DNA of 63,165 nt, counting the filler, from Reticulomyxa filosa (lineage: Eukaryota; Protista; Foraminifera), in the NCBI GenBank assembly GCA_000512085.1. It is 21 parts of 21 records of this genome, joined end to end, with 100 filler letters (N's around TTAATTAATTAA, not from the genome) between each part and the next. Parts side by side here need not be neighbours in the genome. Positions count along the whole stretch, not along the records: positions 14,409 to 18,594 come from ASPP01004310.1; 20 more parts are not named here. One strand, given 5' to 3'. Below the pieces are notes generated by a model, which saw nothing but the letters and a program-made list of their open reading frames with translations, made no database searches and was not told where the DNA came from. The position numbers and the translations under genes were made by a program. Shown here piece after piece: positions 5,973-61,070 of this stretch (positions within the stretch are counted from its first letter, which is position 1; each line of letters starts with the position of its first letter).

Positions 5973-7293
5973 GATGATGACGGCAGTAATGATGATGATG
6001 ATGACGGCAGTAGTGATGATGGTGATGACAGTGATGGGGATGATGATAATACTAATAACAGTAATGGGGATGATGGTAATTTTGATGATGGGGATGACAG
6101 TAATGCTAATGACGGTGATGATGATGATGACATTGACGACAGTGACAATAATGAAGAAAATAATGATGACAAAAAAAAAAAAGAAGAAGTAAAAGAAAAA
6201 GACGATAATAAAAATTATGCACATGTGCATCGAGTAACTGTCTTTGAAACTTTGGCTCCTTTGCCTACTCCGCTCAAAGATACCCAATGCATAGCATATA
6301 AAAACGAAATAATCATGTGTGGAGGTAGAAATAATCGAAATTGCTATTCTTATCATACAATCAAAAATAAATATAAGCTTATATGTGAGTATCCATTTAA
6401 AGAAAGTGGGCATTGTGTGGTGAAGCTTGTTAATAATGACAACTGCAAAAACGCAAATGAAATGACTTTGCTGTCTTTTGGTGGATATCCTAAACATACA
6501 TTGGTGATGAAATATATAAGCGTTTGGAAAAATGAGGATAGGCAGAAGCAATCATTAATAGATTACAATATATGGAAACCTCTAATGGATAGCCATAATA
6601 ATGAAATTTCCATTGGAAAAAAAGAAGATGATTATTACAAAGTACGTGCAGTGATTGGTGGACGCAATCGTAATTTGTTATTTATTACTCATTTCAAAAA
6701 TTACATTGACGTGTTTGATTTAAATACATTTCAATTTATTAAACACGATACTTTACCAAGTGATTGTATACACTCTCAATGCTTTGTATCCAAATCAGAA
6801 AATATGATGTTGCTATTTTGTTGGAAACTGGGATTATCTATTGAATATGATGAAATTAATAATACATTTCAGTATCAAGAATTACACGTAAGCAAAAATA
6901 TTGGAACACTTTGTGCATATGTATACACTTATATCAACGATCTCATTTTATTTTTTGGTGGTAAATATGGAGGATTTGCAAATGAAATTTATCAATATTC
7001 AATTATCGACAACCAATGGTCAAAATTTAAAAAAAGATTACCTCTTACATTGAAAAATTGTGTTGGAATATTGAATGATGACAACAAATTTATACATGTC
7101 GTTGGGATATATAAGGACACAGACACGTATATCGGCCATCTTTTAAATCAAGCTATCCCAAAACATATAAAAATAAGCACAAGTGAGTTATTGGAAAATA
7201 AAAAACAGTGGATTATGGAAAAAGAGTTGCTACAAATTGAACAACTATATCATGAATTTGAAGATATGGACAAAATTGATATTTCATTTAAAG
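5973..7293 (+). CDS. Kelch-type beta-propeller protein with Asp-rich N-terminal tract (partial)
   Basis: Frame is open from the contig start (DDDGSNDDD...) into FETLAPLPTPL..QCIAYKNEIIMCGG...CYSYHTIKNKY, with LLSFGG, RAVIGG and ILFFGG kelch blades. Confidence 0.8.
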
Positions 7294-7440
7294 TTATAGG
7301 TTTATTTTGTGCATTCACANNNNNNNNNNNNNNNNNNNNNNNNNNNNNNNNNNNNNNNNNNNNTTAATTAATTAANNNNNNNNNNNNNNNNNNNNNNNNN
7401 NNNNNNNNNNNNNNNNNNNATAATTTTTTATTTTTTAAAG

Positions 7441-14408: not shown

Positions 14409-14552
14409 AATAAAAAACTAAATTCAAAATTATATTTAAAAACTACACGATTTGTAGATATTTTTTTTTTAAATTTTGATTAAATGTTGTTTTTTCATGG
14501 AGAAACACAATCATCTCTATAAGGTGTCAACTTTCTTTTTTATCTTACTGTA
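14409..14552 (+). repeat. Dispersed ~130-170 bp repeat, copy 1
   Basis: Near-identical reverse complement of 38868-39036. Related copies at ~36463-36570 and ~59236-59362. Confidence 0.85.
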
Positions 14553-14819
14553 TATTGACAAAAGTTATTATCACTTTGGAGGTTGTTTAAAAATAACAAA
14601 TGGTAATTATTTTACTTAATTAATCAAAATGGATTAAACTATCTTTTGAACCATAACACAAATTAATACAACAACCACTATCACTGTTGCTTTTGCTGTT
14701 ATTTTTTATTGTGGAATTTAAATCATAATATTCTATTATCTTCTTTATCATCTCCTTAACCGCATACAATTCTTTTTTATTTGGTTGAATATCCCAAAAT
14801 CATATTGTATTCTTTTATT

Positions 14820-15505
14820 CTAGGGCATATTGCTTTGAACAGCAAGCACTCAAATTGTTAAACATATCGAATATATCACAAACGAACACTTTTATCTCTT
14901 GGCTCAGATAATATTGTATTTACTAATTTATTTCCTATTTTCTGAATTTGATACAAAGCAATTAGATTGAATATAATTATCAATTGTTAAAGTATCATGT
15001 TTAATACATTGAAATGTATTTAAATTAAATACACTAATATTAACAAGATAAGTAATAAATAACAAATTATTGCTTCTCCACCAATCACTACAGTATAATT
15101 ATCATTATCTCTTCCAATGATAATTGAATGATTGTGATTGTCTGTGAAAGGAATCCATTGATTGTAATTGTTTAATTCATTTGATTTGTTTGATATATCA
15201 CTCCAAACACTTATATATTTCATCATCAATGTATGGTTATAATCTCCACCAAAAGACAATAAAGTGATTTTATTATTGTCTTTGTTGTTGTCCTTATCTA
15301 CCAGTTTCACTACAGTGTCCCTATAATTCAACATCACTTGGATACGCACAGATCAACTTGTATTCATTTTTGAGTGTACGACAAGAATAACAAGCTCTTT
15401 TTTCATAACATCCACAAATGAAGAGTTCATGTTTGTGTAGCACATTGAGAATTTCTTAGTGGAATGGGCAACTCTTCCAAAATTTAAAAGTTTTCGTCAC
15501 TCATG
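14820..15505 (-). pseudogene. Kelch-repeat pseudogene (paralog of 5973-7293)
   Basis: ITLLSFGGDYNHTLMMKYISVW..., YNQWIPFTDNHNHSIIIGR and VVIGG are present, broken by frameshifts and stops. Confidence 0.8.
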
Positions 15506-16073
15506 TTGTAGTTTAATTTTTTTTAAAAAAAGGGAAAGCACATGGAAAAAGTCCTTTCTTTTTAAAAGTAAAAAGTGTAATTTGGCTAGAAAAACGAAAA
15601 TTAAGATTTTCTTATTATAAAATTACCACACAATTGCATATAATTATAGAATGTTTTAAAACTATATAAAAATCTTTGAAACATTGAAATGACTATTCAT
15701 CCTTTTTCCAAAAACAAAACAAGATCATCTTAAAAATTATTTTGTTTAAGTTCAGAAAAGAAAAAATTTATGCGTGAGATTTACACTGTCGAAAGTTGGT
15801 TAGTTTTGTTTGAAATTGGATGCAGCACGTATATATAGTTTAAACTGTTTTCAAAAGTTTTGTTAAAAATCTTTTGGAAGAAAAAGCTAAAGAGTGTGAA
15901 GTCAAAATATAACTGTTAAATTCGGTAAGATAATCAAGCCATTGGCAATAACAACAGCAATAAACTATGATTTTTTTTTTAAATTGGATGGAAATACAAA
16001 ATACGTATTGCCTTGTTTATACATATCCGTTCGATTGGAATCAACAACAATTTTAAAAAAAAACATGCAAAAT

Positions 16074-17894
16074 TCATAGTTTGTCACAGTAATCAGAAAA
16101 TACTGGCAACTCTTCTTTCAACCCTTTCCATTTTCTTGTTTGCAGTAAAACACGATAAGCATGTGTTCCTTCCTCCATTGGATTTCCAGCTATTAGTTTC
16201 CATTGGCTAAATTTCATTTGAGAGACTGCTTTTCCGTCAGTGCTTTGTCTCAACAAAGTAGTGAATCCAAAAGACTCCACGACGGGCAAATGTGCTCGCA
16301 CAACAAGTAATTTTGTCCTTGAACATTGTTGAATCTGTTCAATTTCTGCACGTCTGCTGTGCAAGGTGTTGATCACCCCTCCTTGCACATCTGGAGGAGC
16401 AACGATCTCCACCAAATATACTGGCTCCATAAGTCTCGGTCCACTCGCCAATTGGCAAGCATAGCATGCACGTTTAGTGCAAGGCATAATTTGTCCTGCA
16501 TTGCGACGAAGTGGATCAGGATGAAGCATGACACTTTCCAAATTGAAGCGAACACCGCGAAGAGGATTCTCACACAAAACGCCAGATCTGGTAGTATGCA
16601 TGAAAGCTGCAGTGACACTATCTCTAATTTCGTGTATATATTGTACCCCTTTGGTAAGATCAACAAGTACATTGGATATCCCATCCGGATAGCATCCAAA
16701 TGTCCAAACTTTCCGAGCCTCTCTAACATTCCACAAATATTTGTCTTCCAAATCACGAGCAAATACTTTCATATTTGTGATTTCCCCAGTTGGGATAGCC
16801 CCTATTTCGATGTCTTTCATAAATTCTTCCTCCAAAGGAGTCGCCCACATGAACAACCGGTTACGCTTGTTCGAGGACTCTGCTAAACATGTCTTGGGAA
16901 AAATGGAGTCAGTTCCGGTGCGGGTTGTAATGGTCTCTGTAGATAGCACAAGAGGCTCCGTTATGTTTATATCCTTTCCTTTCATTGTGCAATCTTCACT
17001 CAATATCTTCAGACAATAATCCAAATGAAATTCTCCTGCACTGGAAAGTACATGCTGTCCGGATGTATCCACGCATATCCTTGCAGAGGGCTCCAACTGG
17101 CTCAATCTTTTCAATCCTTGCACAAGATGAGACAAATCCGCTGGAGATTTGGAGTCAATGGCCACTTGCACGACAGCAGCCTTTGCGGTGGAATAGAAGG
17201 TGTTTCGGAATGGATAGAATTCTTTGCTATCAGTCAACGTCCCTGAATTCAATAAAAATTGATCCACATCCAATATTGTGCATACATTCCCAGCTGGACA
17301 GTCGTGAATTGGCTCTGGTTTGCACGTATATCCTCCCCCTCCGTTCCAACCGATGCTCCCAACTTTCTTTACATACAAATCCTGCTTTGCATTATATTCA
17401 TAATCTGGCCCCAAAATTCGAATCTCTTCACTTTCTTTAATTGTCCCACTAAACACTCGACCAAATGCATAACACTTTTGTCCATGATCTCCAAAAGGTA
17501 CCATTTTGGCAACGTATACTGACATGGGTCCACTCGCATCGCACTTTGCCACGGCAGCTGCTTCGAGAGTGTCCAAAGGGCCACTGTACAAGTTGACCAC
17601 ACGGTAATGCTGTGCCTCCAATGGAGATGGCAGCTGTCTTACCATCATATCCAATAATGCACGACTGGCTGGTATCCATGTACACATCACCTTTTTCATC
17701 AATTTCTTTGAATTTTGGAGCCAGGTGCCTCCAACGTCCATCTCTGCCTCTATCTCCTTCTGTTGCAATGACAATCGCAGTGCATTCACTATCGGCATTA
17801 ATTGGTCTTTCTTCCCAGCCATTATCGAGTCATACAGCGTTCGAATTGGATGCAACACAAACTGACAAAATCCTCTCATTAATTTACCCTCTGT

Positions 17895-17927
<33 letters not shown>

Positions 17928-18556
17928 TTTATTAATAATTACATTTTTTTGTCATTAAACAAAAATATGATATGTACATATATGTATACATACCAGAATT
18001 TTGAGTGACCCACTCTTTTGCAAGTGGGTCCCAATAGTGATCACCCCACAACATATTCAGCATCTTTTTAGTGGGCAAACCAAACTTTGATGCATATAAT
18101 CGAGAAAAATCACGCAATGTGAATCCCCATCCCTGAAGTCCACTTCCAAATGCAACGCGCTCAGTGTGTGGCAAGACCTTACCATGTCCATTTTTTTTTT
18201 TTTTTAAAAAAAAAAAAAAGTACTTTATATATGTGTATATATATATATACATATATGTGCATGTACATCAAACTTCATTGCTTTCCAAATTTTGGTATTC
18301 ATATGTTTGACAAATTACATTCACAGCCTCAATGATACCGGCGCAAATCTGATAGCAGTCTTCCAAAGGTGAACGCAACTCAGAAAATACACAGTCCAAC
18401 TTGTTCAAAAACAAAATGGGACGAACTCTGTCGGAAATTGCTTGTCGCAGCAAGGTCTCTGTCTGCATGCGCATGCCTTGCACACAATCCACCACAATCA
18501 ATGCACCGTCACTCACACGTAATGTCGTTGTTACCTCGCTCCAAAAGTCGGCAATA

Positions 18557-18557
<1 letters not shown>
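16074..18557 (-). CDS. EEF2: Divergent eukaryotic elongation factor 2 paralog (5' partial)
   Basis: Exons 18557-18274, ~18177-17994 and 17890-16074. Motifs: DF.SEVT..LRV.DGA..VVDCV.G...QTET.LRQA, NKLD, VAFGSGL.GW.FT, AFGRVFSG, GVQY..EI.DSV, PRLMEPVYLVEI, LPV.ESFGFT, and the C-terminal DKL typical of eEF2. Confidence 0.93.
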
Positions 18558-18594
<37 letters not shown>

Positions 18595-27930: not shown

Positions 27931-28441
27931 ATCTATACACACACAAACAATCAAATATTTTATTTTATTTTAAAAAAATATATATTTATTTATTATCTTA
28001 ACATATTTTACTTGGGACTTCCTCATCCCACAAAAAATTAATTTTTTTCTTCTTATTAATTTTTTTTCTTTCTTTCCTTTCATTTCCCCAACTTTCACAA
28101 TTTTTTATTTTCATTATTTCCATCCTCATTTTCATCATCCACATTCCTATTTTTTTCAATTTTTCATCATGATCGTCGCTGTCACTATCGTAATCACTAC
28201 ATAAATCATTGTCATTGTCACCATAATAAAGAAGATCTATAATTATTATTTTTATAAATGTCACACACAAAGAAAGTCCATTCATATACCAAAAATATAT
28301 ATGTATTCATATACAATTAAAAAAAATAATGATCACTCATGTACACATTAAAAAACGTATACGTACATGCGATTATGACATAGAAGTGTCATATGGACAT
28401 ATGTATAGCTATTACACGTATAAGTCTAATGCTAATATCAC

Positions 28442-30166
28442 TCACTTCCTTTTTTTTTTTTCATACTTTGTTGCTGGAGCGGCTGTGGCCATGGTGGAGG
28501 CTGTGGTGGCAGTTGCTGTGGGAGTTGTGGTTGTTGCTGTTGTGGTGGGAGTTGTTTCTGTTGTGGTAATTGTTGTTTCTGTGATTGTGGTGGCCGTTGC
28601 TGTGATTGTAACTGTTGTTGTGGCCGTGGTGGCAATTGTTCTTGTTGTGGCTGTGGCTGTGATGACAATTGTTGCTGTTGTTGTTGTTGTGGTGGCCGCT
28701 GTTGTGATTTTCAACTGCTGTTGTAGTTGTTGTTGTGGCAATTGCTGTTGCTTTGGCCACTGTAGTTGTTGTGGTTTGTGTTGTGGGGGTTGCGGTGGCC
28801 TTTGTTGTTGTGGAGGTGATTGCCAGTGTTGTAGCCACTGTTGTTGTTGCTGTGACTGCTGTGGCTTTGGCTCATACTCTGGATGTGGCTGCAACTGCGG
28901 CTGTTGTTGCCGCCTTATCTGTGGTTGGGGGAGTGGTAGTTGTGATTGTTGTTGTGTCTGTGGTTGTACCTGTAGCTGTGGCTCTGGCTGCGGCTGCTGT
29001 CGCATTATTTGTGATGGAGTGTATGGCAATTGTAATTGTAGTTGTTGTAGTTGTTCTGGTGGTGGCGATTGTGACTTTGGAAAGTCTTGCCACCTGAATC
29101 TTGGAATAATTTTAGATGGAGAAAGAGGTGGAGATGGAGATTGTGACTCTTGTGACGATTGTGGTGACGATTGTGGGGTGGATTCTTGTGATGATTTTGG
29201 AGAGTATTCTTGTTTTGCTAGTGGTGGGGATTGTTGTGGTTGTTGTGGTTGTTGTGGTAGTGGCGATTGTGGCTTTGGAAAATCTTGCCACCTGAACCTT
29301 GGAATAATTTTAGATGGAGGTCTAGGTGTAGATGGAGATTGAGCCTCTGGTGAGGATTCTTGTGATGATTTTGTGGTGGATTCTTTTGATGATCGTGGGG
29401 TTGATTCTTTTGATGATTGGATTGGGGATTCTTGTTGTTCAGGTGGTGGGGATTGTCGTTGTTGTTGTTGTGATTGTTGTGGTTGTTCTGGTTGTTCTGG
29501 TTGTTGTTGTTGTGGTGGTGGCGATTGTGGTGGTGGCAATTGTGGTGGTGGCGATTGTGGTTTTGGAAAATCTTGCCACCTGAACCTTGGAATAATTTTA
29601 GATGGAGGTCTTGGTGGAGATGGAGATTGAGACTCTTGTGGTGATTGTGATTGTGAAGTGGATTCTTGCTGTGATTGTGGTGATGATTCTTTTTGTGATT
29701 GGGTGGGGGATTCTTGTTTTGGATGTGATACGGATTGTCGCTGCTGTTGTGGTTGTGGTGGGGGGGATTCTTGTTTTGGAGGTGATGCGGATTGTCGTTG
29801 TGTTGGTGGTGATGTGTGTCTTGGAAGTCGCCGCCATCTAAGCTTTGGAAAAAGGGGGTCCTCTATCCCAAATCGATACATTTCCAGTTCCAAATCCGAC
29901 TCTTCTCTTTCTTGGCGTGGGGGTGAGGGGGTGAATGGTGCCAATAATACCAATCCCTTAAGTTGTTGGGGGGGTACTTGCCCTATGTCGGGTGGAGTTG
30001 TCGATGATGGTCTTTGTAATGTCGTTGATTGCTGTTCAACCTGGCCTCCAACCATGATTTGTGGTGTTGACACAAATATGGTGTTAGGCCTTGAGTTATC
30101 ATCATGTATTGTAGCTGATTGCTGCTTTCGTGAAGTGGGACTCAATGCCATCAAGTTTGACTCCAC
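28442..30166 (-). CDS. Pro/Gln/Ser-rich repeat protein with a Thr-rich tail
   Basis: 574-codon ORF with three copies of PSKIIPRFRWQDFPK(P/S)QSP plus one degenerate copy, QES spacers and a poly-Thr C-terminus. Confidence 0.65.
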   Translation of the reverse strand: MESNLMALSPTSRKQQSATIHDDNSRPNTIFVSTPQIMVGGQVEQQSTTLQRPSSTTPPDIGQVPPQQLKGLVLLAPFTPSPPRQEREESDLELEMYRFGIEDPLFPKLRWRRLPRHTSPPTQRQSASPPKQESPPPQPQQQRQSVSHPKQESPTQSQKESSPQSQQESTSQSQSPQESQSPSPPRPPSKIIPRFRWQDFPKPQSPPPQLPPPQSPPPQQQQPEQPEQPQQSQQQQRQSPPPEQQESPIQSSKESTPRSSKESTTKSSQESSPEAQSPSTPRPPSKIIPRFRWQDFPKPQSPLPQQPQQPQQSPPLAKQEYSPKSSQESTPQSSPQSSQESQSPSPPLSPSKIIPRFRWQDFPKSQSPPPEQLQQLQLQLPYTPSQIMRQQPQPEPQLQVQPQTQQQSQLPLPQPQIRRQQQPQLQPHPEYEPKPQQSQQQQQWLQHWQSPPQQQRPPQPPQHKPQQLQWPKQQQLPQQQLQQQLKITTAATTTTTTATIVITATATTRTIATTATTTVTITATATTITETTITTTETTPTTTATTTTPTATATTASTMATAAPATKYEKKKRK

Positions 30167-32255
30167 GTCTTTGTCATTGTTGTTATTGTTGTCTGTTTGG
30201 AGTCAACAAAACAGAGTGTTTAGTTTCATTTTGTTTTTGTACAAAAAGACATTCAGCAATCATACCTCTGTTGTTTGTCATTATTGCTGCTATTTTTGTT
30301 TAAAAATTAGTTGTTTGTTGTTATTTGTTGTTACCGAAATACTGCCCTCTTTTTTAAGAAGAAATCCCTTTATCTCTTCCTCTTTCTTTGTTGTTTTGTG
30401 TGTCTAAAGTGTAGACTTTTTGTTTTTGCAGTCTCTGCCCTCTGTACAATCTCTGCTATCTGTGGAAAAAAGTTATTTCTTTTCGCAGAAAGTTTTTCCT
30501 AGTGTTGGCTGTTATTTATGAAGAAATTTTAGTCTCAATTGAAAAAAAAAAATTGGTTGTCGTTCATTACAAATTTTTTGTAGTAAAAAAAAAAAAGTGT
30601 ATATCATGTAAGATTTGTCGAAATAATGAAGCAATTTTTACCATCAAAAAATTGATCAATAAAATACTTGACAAATCCTTGCTCTTGTTGAGATATAGTG
30701 TGACAGATCTCCTTCAAGTATTGTGTAAAGTAGTATAGTTTGTCGCTTCAAAGTCTTTTTTTTTTTCAGCAAGACTGGAATAAAAAACATAAATGTCAAC
30801 CACAAAAGTATTGCCAACAAAAATAAAAAACCAAAAAACTAATTCAACTGCCATGTTTTATCAAACAGCAACACAGTAAAGAAATTCTTAATTATTAAAG
30901 GGTAATTAATTAGTGTAGTTGGCTTGCCTGTGGAATATTGAATGAGAGAAAGATTGGCACGATACCACCAACAGCATCAAGTTGTCTCGATTGTTGAGAA
31001 AAGGAAAGAAATAATGAAAAACAATATAGTGTAAAAAAACGTTTTGTTTTGGTTGATGTTTTCGAATATTGTTTTTTTGCGATTATACATCACTCTGTGA
31101 AATAATTTTGAATGCTCTAAAATAACTTTAGTTAAATTCAACAATTTTGTCTTGCACTTCAAACGAGGACGCAAATGCTTGGATAAAATACAATTCAATG
31201 AATACACGAAATAAATTAAAAATAATATATCATATAAAATAGAAAAAAATAAATTATAAATTGAAATAAGGCAGCTTATTCCATTTTTTATAAATAAAAA
31301 AATAAAAACAAGCAAATTCATACCTATTGATTGTATTCAACGAAATCCTTTAGATACACGATGAAGAGCTTCAATTTGCTTGGTTATTGTGCAATGAAAA
31401 GACATTATATCATTAAATGTTTTGATGGATTTATACAAAATTACCATTTTCATTTATCACACATGAAATACAGAAAATTCAAATATAAGTATTCCAATTA
31501 AACTATTCAAACAAATACAATCAATATATATATGACACTACCAAAGATATGAGACAAAAATTGGATAAACATATTAGAATTAAAAGTATTCTCCCAATGA
31601 ATGTGTTGTTGATGATTCATTTGTTCAAATCTAACATATTTATATGTTGTACTTATGAATAATATGCAAAAATATTTTTTTAAAACTATTTTACTTTCCA
31701 TCCAATATAAATTGTTGTATCATAAAATTTTTTTGTTGTGCTATTGCTATCCAAGCTGTCTCCTTCTTTTTTTTGTAGCATATGAAAACAAACTTTCATT
31801 GAATGTCCAATATCCAAGTAATCTTATGATAATTGATGAAATAGAATTTGATTGTATCATCCCCATTCATTTCATTTTTTCTCCCATTGTTTCCCATTCT
31901 TATGAAATCTTACATTTCTTTTTGTTTTTTTTTTCCACTTCACCACAATATCTCTTCTATTCAATTAAAATTGCACATAATCTTTTAAGCTTAATTCTAT
32001 CGCTTTCACTTTTTTCAATAATTCTATTATCTCTTTCATTCATTTTTTTATACATATGTTTTTAACAATTATTATTTTTCAAATAATTGCTTTACATTCA
32101 CATTCNNNNNNNNNNNNNNNNNNNNNNNNNNNNNNNNNNNNNNNNNNNNTTAATTAATTAANNNNNNNNNNNNNNNNNNNNNNNNNNNNNNNNNNNNNNN
32201 NNNNNGGTAACGAAAGGAGAAATGTGAACCAAAAAAAAAAAAAAAAAAAACGAAG

Positions 32256-33222
32256 TTACACTCTTTGTAAAAAAACGGTTCGATCGACCGGACATTGTAC
32301 CGGCCATCGAGGATTGTCTCGTTGTCGCACTCGAATCCACTCGTCAATGCACGCCGCGTGGAAGTGGCAGCCGCAGATGGGAAGTGTTTTGATGACGCTC
32401 TGTGCGTCGAACAGGTCGAAGCATATCCGACAAGTGACTCCATTTGTGTAGAACACCCTCAATTGTTGTGCCGTGACGCGATAGGCAGGGATGGAAGAGG
32501 CATTATCTCCCAAACTATCCGACACCAAATCTTGTGCAAGCTTTTCATCCTCCTTTTCGTCATTGATGTTGATATTGACATTGTGATTATTATTATTATT
32601 ATTATTGTTATTATTATTATTATTATTATTACTATTGCTATTACTCGTACGGTCCACTATCTCTTCGTACAAATGAACCAACTCGTTTTCGATTCTGTCA
32701 ATCCTTTGCGCGTCTGCTGCTTCTTTGTGTTCGCGTTCGTACGTATACGTATTGGACATGTCATCAAAATCGGAGCCACTTGCACTTGGATGTCGCTGTT
32801 GACTATAACTATATTGACTCTGATTCTGATTCTGATTCTTGTTTTGATTCTGATTTTGATTTTGATTCTGATGCTGGTTCTGGCTCTGATTTTGGTGGTG
32901 ATGGCTCTGAACTTGTCGCTGTTGGTGGCTCGGTCTTTGTCTCGGGGTCGAGTTGCGTGTCTGGTTGTGGCTCCGGTGTTTGCGTCGGCTCTGGCTCTGC
33001 CTTTCCTTCTCCCTCTGTTTCTGTCGCTCCTTCTGCGTCTTCTTGAGGCGGTGCAAGTTCTGCTTGGATATCTCCTCCATCTGCAATTGGTACGCATACG
33101 CCAAGTCGACGTCCTTCGTTGTAGCGACGTCACTTTGCGTTCTGTTGTCCCCTCTTCCTCCCTCTTCATCTATATTCATATTGTTATTCGAGAGTGTATT
33201 TTGATTGATATCATTGTCATTA
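32256..33222 (-). CDS. RING-finger E3 ligase-like protein (partial)
   Basis: C-terminal CRIC...LPICGCHFHAACIDEW...CPVDR, UIM-like DVDLAYAYQLQMEE, and QN/poly-N tracts. Confidence 0.8.
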
Positions 33223-59362: not shown

Positions 59363-59991
59363 ATTAAATTAATTGTGATTATATCTCCAATTTAGCATAC
59401 ATCATCTTTAGATGCATTTGCACAATTTCTTAAGTACTTCAAAACTGCATTTGCGATACTGATGCTGCGTGTGTAATAAGAGCTAATGAAAAAGAGCAGG
59501 AAAAAATGGATTAGAGTCGATGTATATCAAATGAGGAAAGTACATAGTATCTGTCGAAAATAGTCAATATTGTGTCTCTCATGCAATTGGCTTGCGTGCA
59601 ATTTCAGTCTTGTTATACGTGCATACTTACTTATACATTATCCATCACCAGCTTGTATTACATCAACTTCAGGAACTTAATTGCCACTAATAACAAGACG
59701 CTGAATAGTTTTTTCCTCTCTTACAAGTAAACTTAGCGTTTTTTTGAAGTTTTACGATTTTCCCAAGTAAAAGGATTCGTCGTTTAAATTGGGAAAAAAG
59801 AAAGGAAAATATTTAAAAATAAATTTCACAAAAATTGAACTTCAGTTCAAATTTTTAGAAAAAACAAAGTTGTAGCAATTTTATTTCTTTGATAGTTTTT
59901 TATTTTACTGTAACTACAAAAGTTCACTCCAAACCTTACTTTAAAACTTGAGAACAAACTTTTTAAAAGCTCTTGTCGAATAAAAAGAAGC

Positions 59992-61070
59992 ATGTCTCAG
60001 GCAACAGAAAATGAAAAGAAAGTAGATACTACTTTGTCGTCTTCGAGCTCGAAAGATGAAAGCGTAGCAAAAAAGCAACGCCAGCCGTCGTTGTACGTAT
60101 GCCATGGAGGAGGCCCAATGCCGTATCTTGCTAAGCTAAGAAAGACATCATACGACGATGAAACGAATGGGTTCATATTGAAGTCGTTGGATTGGTTAGG
60201 AGGTTACATCGACAAGTATAAGCCCAAGGCGTTGCTGTTGATCTCCGCCCATTGGGAAGAGTCTCAATTGGCGTGCATCTATCAAAAAAGTCCGTCCTTA
60301 TTTTACGACTACTATGGCTTTCCAAAGGAGTCGTACAAGTTGGCATACAGCCCAAAGTGCGACCTTGCGACGACGGATGCAATGGTAAACATTTTGAACG
60401 CGGCCATAAAAGGCAAAGCAAAAGAGTTGAAATTCTTGAAATCGGAAGTGAAGTATGACAAATCACGAGGATGGGACCACGGAGTGTTTATACCTTTAAT
60501 ACTTGCCCGACCAAACGCAGATATCCCAATCCTGCAATTGTCATTGTTGACAAGTTTGAATGCAACTGATCATTTGGAACTTGGCAAAGTTAGCAATTTT
60601 TTTTTTTTTTTAAAAAAAAATACTAATAAAAAAAAAATTTACCAATAAAAAAAAAAATTTAATAATAATAACAATTTTCTATTAAAAAGATACTTTCGCC
60701 CTTACGTGATGAAGGTGTAATGATCATTGGGTCTGGTATGTCTTTCCACAATATGGGAGCGTTCATGGGAGATATGACAGAGGAAGAAGCGGGCAAAAGC
60801 AAACAGTTTGACGATTGGCTGTCAGATTCGCTGTGCAGTCAAAAACTTACTGGTAAAGAAAAATGGGACTTGTTAAGTAAATGGGACAAGGCTTCTCCTC
60901 ATGGTTCTGGTCGCTTCTCACACCCACGGGAAGAACACTTGTTGCCTTTGCACGTGTGCTTGGGATCGAGTTTTCTCCCTTCCGTTGTCGACGACAAGCA
61001 TCAGGTCAATGTCGAAGCTTGTCGTGGTGTTGCAATGGGGGTCAATTTGTCATGTTTTGCTTTTCTTTAA
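59992..61070 (+). CDS. LigB-family extradiol ring-cleavage dioxygenase (YgiD / 4,5-DOPA dioxygenase-like)
   Basis: Exons 59992-60588 and 60690-61070. Motifs: HGGGP, ISAHWE, YDYYGFP, RGWDHG, LR.EGV.IIGSG.S.HN and HPREEHLLPL. Confidence 0.93.

Follow-up and report, generated by a model that had tools for sequence, protein, structure and literature searches.

The window, the whole stretch of 63,165 nucleotides analyzed here, consists of small contigs of the foraminiferan Reticulomyxa filosa joined by N44-TTAATTAATTAA-N44 linkers, and one of these contigs codes on its minus strand for a copy of translation elongation factor eEF2 with an arginine at the diphthamide histidine (hereafter the focal copy). 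The gene is cut at 18594, which places G1 and G2 outside the window; what remains splices from three exons with GT..AG borders (18557-18274, 18177-17994 and 17890-16074) into an open frame of 760 codons plus a stop codon. Its features, all on the minus strand and in the order of transcription, are as follows.

14409-18594, minus strand: 4186-bp contig with the eEF2 copy bearing Arg; 5' end cut by the contig end at 18594
18274-18557, minus strand: first exon, with AG/GT borders and an open frame (Pfam GTP_EFTU, E=2e-16); its share of the G domain runs from G3, whose Gly codon is split, through G4
18553-18555, minus strand: codon ATT, which puts Ile at the position of the catalytic His of switch II (H108 in yeast), the split Gly and IADFWSEV standing against canonical GHVDFSSEV
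18394-18405, minus strand: retained G4 motif NKLD, the next residue changed from Arg to Cys here and in the sister P0165
18178-18273, minus strand: GT..AG intron, phase 0, the splicing of which restores collinearity with canonical eEF2
17994-18177, minus strand: middle exon with the G5 region FGSGLQGW, 60 of 61 residues being those of the sister P0165
17891-17993, minus strand: GT..AG intron, phase 1
16074-17890, minus strand: last exon, with the end of G', domains II-V and stop codon TGA; 604 open codons, C-terminal DKL
17307-17360, minus strand: rewritten domain II loop, GSIGWNGGGGYTCKPEPI against QRCLLMMGRYVEQI, four residues longer, with the same rewrite in both sisters
17022-17042, minus strand: SAGEFHL in domain III, where canonical eEF2 has GAGELHL; the same motif stands in P0001 (ETO32189)
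16860-16880, minus strand: second loop of the domain IV tip, ESSNKRN for canonical KSPNKHN, with CGT at 16865-16863 giving Arg for His
16500-16523, minus strand: diphthamide loop, HPDPLRRN for canonical HADAIHRG, with CGT at 16508-16506 giving Arg for His, and with Asn for Gly, a change that most parabasalid EF2s also have

An initial annotation of this DNA had described a 601-codon open exon ending in DKL; the last exon is indeed open with that terminus, but it measures 1817 nt (17890-16074) and holds 604 whole codons, the figure of 601 being the count from its first Met, which equals the deposited protein P0327. The near-identity of the middle exon (17994-18177) to the sister copy, against 80-86% for the flanking exons, reflects either strong constraint or recent gene conversion. 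The contig from 18695 was rejected as the missing 5' end of the gene: it lies past an N-linker and contains no eEF2 match. Codon bias of the focal copy (ENC 49.6 vs 46.9) says nothing on its expression. Elsewhere in the window are ORFs with an MHYT bacterial signaling repeat in a eukaryotic contig (53794-54396, minus strand; PF03707, E=1.5e-18), a LigB-type aromatic ring-opening dioxygenase domain (59914-60645, plus strand; E=1e-7), a Kelch-like beta-propeller (5973-7319, plus strand) and a RING finger (32259-33221, minus strand), three WD40-repeat ORFs on both strands of one contig (43837-47146), and long overlapping ORFs in a skewed low-complexity stretch (28230-30407; GC skew 0.37, AT skew -0.38), the longest of which has no Pfam match.

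Several lines of comparison identify the gene as an eEF2 paralog, as the initial annotation had held, and not as EFL1/Ria1 or Snu114. Against solved structures the last exon scores 493 bits with eEF2, at most 284 with Snu114 and 161 with EFL1; domains II-V, modeled with AlphaFold (mean pLDDT 82, pTM 0.62), find their best matches in eEF2 structures; and the focal copy has the G, II, III, IV, V architecture and the eEF2 fold, being collinear with eEF2 with insertions of at most 7 residues, the long EFL1 insertion being absent. The protein searches also recovered the canonical, His-bearing R. filosa eEF2 (ETO21497.1 plus ETO21496.1; P0166 plus P0122), which has all motifs intact and is 61% identical to the focal copy. 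Its deposited form is split into two proteins by what looks like a frameshift, for which an assembly error is the probable cause. Two further divergent sequences are closer: ETO14681/2/3, deposited as three pieces with shifted frames, is 80-86% identical, and ETO32189 is 74-76% identical; among the matches listed, the closest named relatives are all R. filosa proteins. We computed two trees, one of 64 rows and one of 33 rows with three Snu114-like outgroups labeled by motif, both quick searches without bootstrap and without EFL1 or archaeal rows. In both, all three divergent copies group together (SH-aLRT 100); their long stem, of length 0.56 in the 64-row and 0.43 in the 33-row tree, arises inside the Reticulomyxa canonical clade (support 100; canonical tips 0.02-0.08). 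In the 33-row tree the focal copy falls within eEF2 to the exclusion of the distant Snu114-like rows. Snu114 is thus rejected by tree and bit score, and EFL1/Ria1 by bit score and by nesting in trees that held no EFL1 row. On these sequence comparisons the focal copy is a lineage-specific eEF2 duplicate of R. filosa, which has no fewer than three such divergent copies beside the canonical gene. Three protein searches, which listed the best 120 of 2792 matches, all 54 and the best 120 of 196, included no ortholog from outside R. filosa, and a metagenome scan with a two-copy alignment returned 26 loci, none of which belongs to the divergent clade by identity (44-61%) or motifs. A Logan/ENA pair with the look-alike loop HPDPIRR (P0434, P0486) was set aside, as it falls elsewhere in the tree on long branches.

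At the tip of domain IV the minus strand from 16532 to 16482 reads VMLHPDPLRRNAGQIMP, and its CGT codon aligns with the diphthamide His of eEF2 structures. The replacement by Arg reported in the initial annotation is thereby borne out, the more so as P0207, a protein from a separate 739-bp NCBI record, is 100% identical to the focal copy across 223 residues, loop included, which makes a single base-call error very unlikely. The column holds His in all 114 of 114 reference eEF2s kept from the first search, a set from which four divergent matches and the two top matches had been excluded, all six of which also have His. In place of the motif HxDxxHRG the focal copy has HPDPLRRN, and 6 of 17 residues depart from the canonical R. 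filosa loop, VKLHADAIHRGAGQIMP; flanking residues do differ, as had been noted, but the 'A' and 'M' of NAGQIMP are the canonical R. filosa state. These observations support the conclusion that the focal copy cannot carry diphthamide. The second tip loop has likewise lost its canonical His and Pro, SSNKRN replacing SPNKHN; this loop is intact in P0001 (ETO32189) and unreadable in the frameshifted third copy. Both divergent sisters retain the diphthamide His (HSDAIHRG, YADAIHRG), and among the divergent R. filosa copies the rewriting of the tip is confined to the focal copy.

A second histidine is missing from G3 of the G domain, and this, which the initial annotation had passed over, is the larger change. 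The first exon begins, after the split G of the Gly codon, with GT ATT GCC GAC TTT TGG, giving G-I-A-D-F-W-S-E where canonical eEF2 has G-H-V-D-F-S-S-E, and the sister P0165 has Asn in the same column (GNVEFWSE) after what is apparently the same intron. The G3 motif DxPGH thus lacks its catalytic His in 2 of 2 divergent copies for which the region is available; no G domain was found for ETO32189. As the residue was lost in two separate sequences, the loss probably predates their split. As described in PMC5084732, the switch II His positions the catalytic water, and when it is replaced, the ribosome no longer stimulates hydrolysis by EF-Tu, and EF-G and IF2 lose hydrolysis altogether. The G4 NKxD motif and the G5 region (NKLD, FGSGLQGW) are retained. 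In domain II the LMMGR motif is rewritten in all three divergent copies, with no compensated frameshifts seen behind the new loop on inspection by eye against the canonical relative L001, and the Pfam score of the domain is 20.9, below the cutoff of 30.3, against 53.9 for the canonical protein. SAGEFHL replaces GAGELHL in both divergent copies readable there, and the near-invariant sites of domains II-III have changed about as often as variable sites.

We then considered how these changes are distributed over the copies. In ETO32189 (P0001), 27 of 76 near-invariant sites in domains II and III have changed as opposed to 1 of 35 in domain IV (p=1e-4). In domain IV of the two sisters the near-invariant sites are nearly untouched (1/35 and 2/27), while variable sites have diverged normally (27/75 and 28/58), which argues for selection as the agent that preserved this domain and leads us to reject gene conversion. 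Since the sisters keep the tip while domains II and III have changed, the stem lineage released the motor and kept the tip, and the order of the tree makes it probable that the catalytic His disappeared earlier than the diphthamide one. In the focal copy the pattern is different: 6 of 12 protected tip sites have changed vs 6 of 97 protected sites elsewhere (p=3e-4). Of 646 sites, 54 carry a change unique to it, and 5 of these lie within the seven residues of the loop; a binomial test gives p=7e-5 when this loop is specified and p=0.024 when a window of that length may lie anywhere. Under stricter polarization 4 of the 7 loop residues remain, with p=7e-4 for the specified loop and p=0.17 for a window anywhere. 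As the loop was picked after its difference had been seen, and given the last of these values, positive selection on the tip is suggested rather than shown.

Along the gene as a whole, a GY94-type three-taxon model (our own script; canonical relative L001, outgroup L009 or L005) gives dN/dS of 0.18-0.19 on the path to the focal copy vs 0.05-0.07 for L001, about 3-4 times higher, the estimates being averages over stem and terminal branch that use the relative's canonical gene and an outgroup with dS near saturation. Fixing dN/dS at 1 is rejected for this lineage (LRT 26 and 31), and the value lies well below the figure near 1 that the initial annotation had named as adverse to a functional gene. 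By this measure the focal-copy lineage is under relaxed purifying selection (dN/dS ~0.18). Five insertions relative to the canonical protein are present, none of which shifts the frame.

Degenerate copies of this kind are not restricted to R. filosa. We surveyed the best 150 representatives of 50%-identity clusters, removing five Snu114-like rows by motif; a few rows may be misaligned. The diphthamide His is missing in 22 of the 145 remaining rows, a set enriched for divergent proteins that gives no prevalence, and Arg is its commonest replacement (8 of 22). Among 59 rows with G3 fully aligned, six lack both histidines, five only the diphthamide one and three only the catalytic one. Ten proteins were looked up (nine His-less, one His-bearing), of which seven are named: two from Bolivina, one each from Naegleria, Dictyostelium, Tieghemostelium and Cunninghamella, and the His-bearing protein of Nonionella. 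Arg or another residue occupies the diphthamide site in Naegleria EFC46271, Dictyostelium KAM9958618, Tieghemostelium KYR02430, Cunninghamella CAO3634839 and the two Bolivina proteins, and one Naegleria protein lacks both histidines. As no named degenerate copy joins the Reticulomyxa clade, parallel origins are indicated, and orthology to the Bolivina and Nonionella copies is unsupported. We also observed divergent eEF2s that keep the His and have NKLN in the second loop (P0049/P0328, P0055 (L021), P0058, P0111, P0181 and P0337), with an altered first loop (HRDPPHRN, HSDPSHRG, HPVAVHRS). As far as they were placed in the tree, they lie among rows from Foraminifera. They resemble the SANKLN/HRN type of parabasalids and may have converged repeatedly on independence from diphthamide. 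Drosophila 'elongation factor 2-like' proteins (P0187-P0197) have the tip loops HADAVHRSGSQ and SRNKHN, with the His kept.

With both the toxin-target and the GTP-splitting histidine missing, a ribosome-binding brake is a likelier role for the focal copy than a toxin-proof motor. We tentatively propose, as a reading that may well be correct yet is far from assured, that it is a hydrolysis-impaired, non-translocating factor acting as a ribosome brake or dormancy clamp. It arose by duplication within the Reticulomyxa eEF2 clade and changed in two steps. On the stem, the switch II His was probably lost (its absence is seen in the two copies with a G domain) and canonical constraint on domains II-III was released, while domain IV, the G4/G5 region and the overall fold were retained; in the focal copy, the diphthamide loop was then rewritten and the second tip loop changed. 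GTP binding would presumably persist (G1 and G2 lie beyond the contig), but the sarcin-ricin loop would be unable to fire the factor, which would linger where translation factors bind and compete there with normal eEF2, and the rewritten tip would free it from DPH1-7 and from diphthamide-directed control. Structural matches of the AlphaFold model include eEF2 on dormant ribosomes. Against a clamp, domains II, III and V contact the ribosome and their near-invariant sites have changed at 19-37%, so ribosome binding could be weak or lost; moreover, a clamp working through its domain IV tip would have no need of a new one. The terminal branch of the focal copy, with 14 of 249 near-invariant vs 21 of 246 variable sites changed (p=0.22), shows no significant sparing of the former, and this too counts against a clamp.

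The same branch is what might be expected of a duplicate that was once useful and is now drifting toward a pseudogene, the change from His to Arg being one of many recent unselected replacements. We regard such decay as a serious possibility, though on balance a doubtful one. That change is a single transition and yields the commonest replacement in divergent eEF2s, no ortholog was seen outside R. filosa among the listed protein matches or the 26 metagenome loci, and the nearest sister lies in three frame-shifted pieces; the canonical gene, too, is in two frameshifted pieces, which makes such assembly breaks weak evidence of decay. In neutral simulations, none of 1500 runs per setting kept a 760-codon frame open through 150 or more amino-acid changes, and just 1.5-3.5% kept it open through 53, indels not counted; drift predicts no such excess of change at the tip over other protected sites as we observe.

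That excess would also suit a further explanation, namely that the clade comprises decoys or baits, dead eEF2 mimics that show the domain IV tip to ADP-ribosylating toxins or effectors of prey bacteria, with the focal copy as an arms-race variant. This would account for the conservation of the diphthamide-bearing domain IV in both sisters alongside released motor domains, for the burst of replacements at a toxin-recognized tip and for the recurrence of similar copies in other protists. We nevertheless consider it unlikely: a decoy must be abundant relative to eEF2, one of the recurrences is in a fungus (Cunninghamella), and we know of no toxin from this habitat or host. The loss of the His would make a poorer bait for diphthamide-specific toxins, eEF2 H715R being modified much more slowly, although Arg at the site can accept ADP-ribose from cholix, as reported in PMC4265445. 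The more general scenario, in which protists repeatedly convert spare eEF2s into pseudo-GTPase bait or clamp and the focal copy stands in a second, positively selected step of tip rewriting, the arms race being carried by the decoy, seems to us similarly improbable.

The initial annotation had instead favored a working, toxin-immune backup translocase, which we judge very unlikely. The catalytic His is gone, here and in the sister, both tip loops are altered, the motifs of domains II and III are rewritten in domains released from canonical constraint, and the catalytic His was probably lost first, the reverse of the order that immunity would drive; furthermore, the canonical His-bearing eEF2 persists as a toxin target. 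An Arg at yeast position 699 or human position 715 is reportedly non-functional. The modeled fold does appear to be kept throughout domains II-V, yeast eEF2 alleles H699N and H699I support growth according to PMC3585130, and the Asn beside the site matches that of parabasalid EF2s, where it is a proposed diphthamide substitute (PMC6143161); yet cholix does ADP-ribosylate H715R, if slowly (PMC4265445). We found no open text in the literature on the viability of H699R. That the gene is EFL1/Ria1 or Snu114, or a sequencing artefact, has next to no plausibility despite the altered tip loops of Snu114-like sequences and the indel errors of the assembly, given the bit scores, the 61% identity to canonical eEF2, the nesting in the tree and the second record that repeats the loop.

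Returning to the proposed hydrolysis-impaired ribosome binder, eukaryotic eEF2 copies that lack both histidines appear to be undescribed, though His-less archaeal EF2 paralogs and divergent protist eEF2 duplicates are already in print; we found no literature on this gene or on such copies in a search of literature outside the subscription journals, one of which holds the R. filosa genome paper. A single Reticulomyxa genome holds a resolved series, from canonical, through motor-degenerate with the tip intact, to motor-degenerate with the tip rewritten, which orders the losses and makes clamp, decoy and decay directly testable against one another. Dictyostelium and Naegleria offer parallel cases in tractable hosts, and degenerate copies of this kind can mislead eEF2-based phylogenies.

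Compared with canonical eEF2 (yeast Eft1/2, PDB 1N0U/1N0V; R. filosa), the focal copy shares domain order, fold, length of domains II-V, the G4/G5 region and the DKL end, but it has neither the catalytic nor the diphthamide His, nor the second-loop His and Pro, nor the motifs LMMGR and GAGELHL. A comparable case is the archaeal EF-2 paralog aEF-2p (Narrowe et al. 2018, PMC6143161), which likewise accompanies a canonical EF2, is degenerate in both loops of domain IV and has lost the His; that paper judges it unlikely to translocate. According to the same source, aEF-2p has G1-G5 intact, is thought to hydrolyze GTP and occurs mostly in dph-lacking genomes. In contrast, the focal copy has a separate eukaryotic origin, has lost the G3 His and with it a fully conserved G1-G5 set, has sisters that keep the diphthamide His, and nests in foraminiferan eEF2 rather than in an archaeal clade (in trees without archaeal rows). 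The initial annotation had cited His-less EF2 paralogs from archaea and parabasalids; the archaeal part stands with aEF-2p, but parabasalids keep the His (HRN or HRG) and have lost the DPH genes (PMC6143161, supplementary Fig. S2b). Parabasalid eEF2 of the HRN/SANKLN type has in common with the focal copy the change from Gly to Asn after Arg in the first loop, proposed there to stand in for diphthamide, and the loss of the second-loop His; unlike the focal copy, it is a canonical translocase with the target His, its DPH genes gone. The same study reports dph homologs in all surveyed eukaryotes except parabasalids, and in the searched part of its supplement (Fig. S2b) R. filosa appears as canonical ETO21496 only. 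Species-specific divergent eEF2 duplicates of protists such as Naegleria gruberi (Atkinson 2015, PMC4342817) are likewise lineage-restricted, highly divergent extras; the word 'diphthamide' has 0 occurrences in the main text of that paper, and its relevant passages do not discuss loop or catalytic residues. Finally, EFL1/Ria1 and Snu114 are also eEF2-derived, non-translocating paralogs, but those are products of ancient pan-eukaryotic duplications (PMC4342817), whereas the focal copy is nested within the eEF2 of Reticulomyxa itself.
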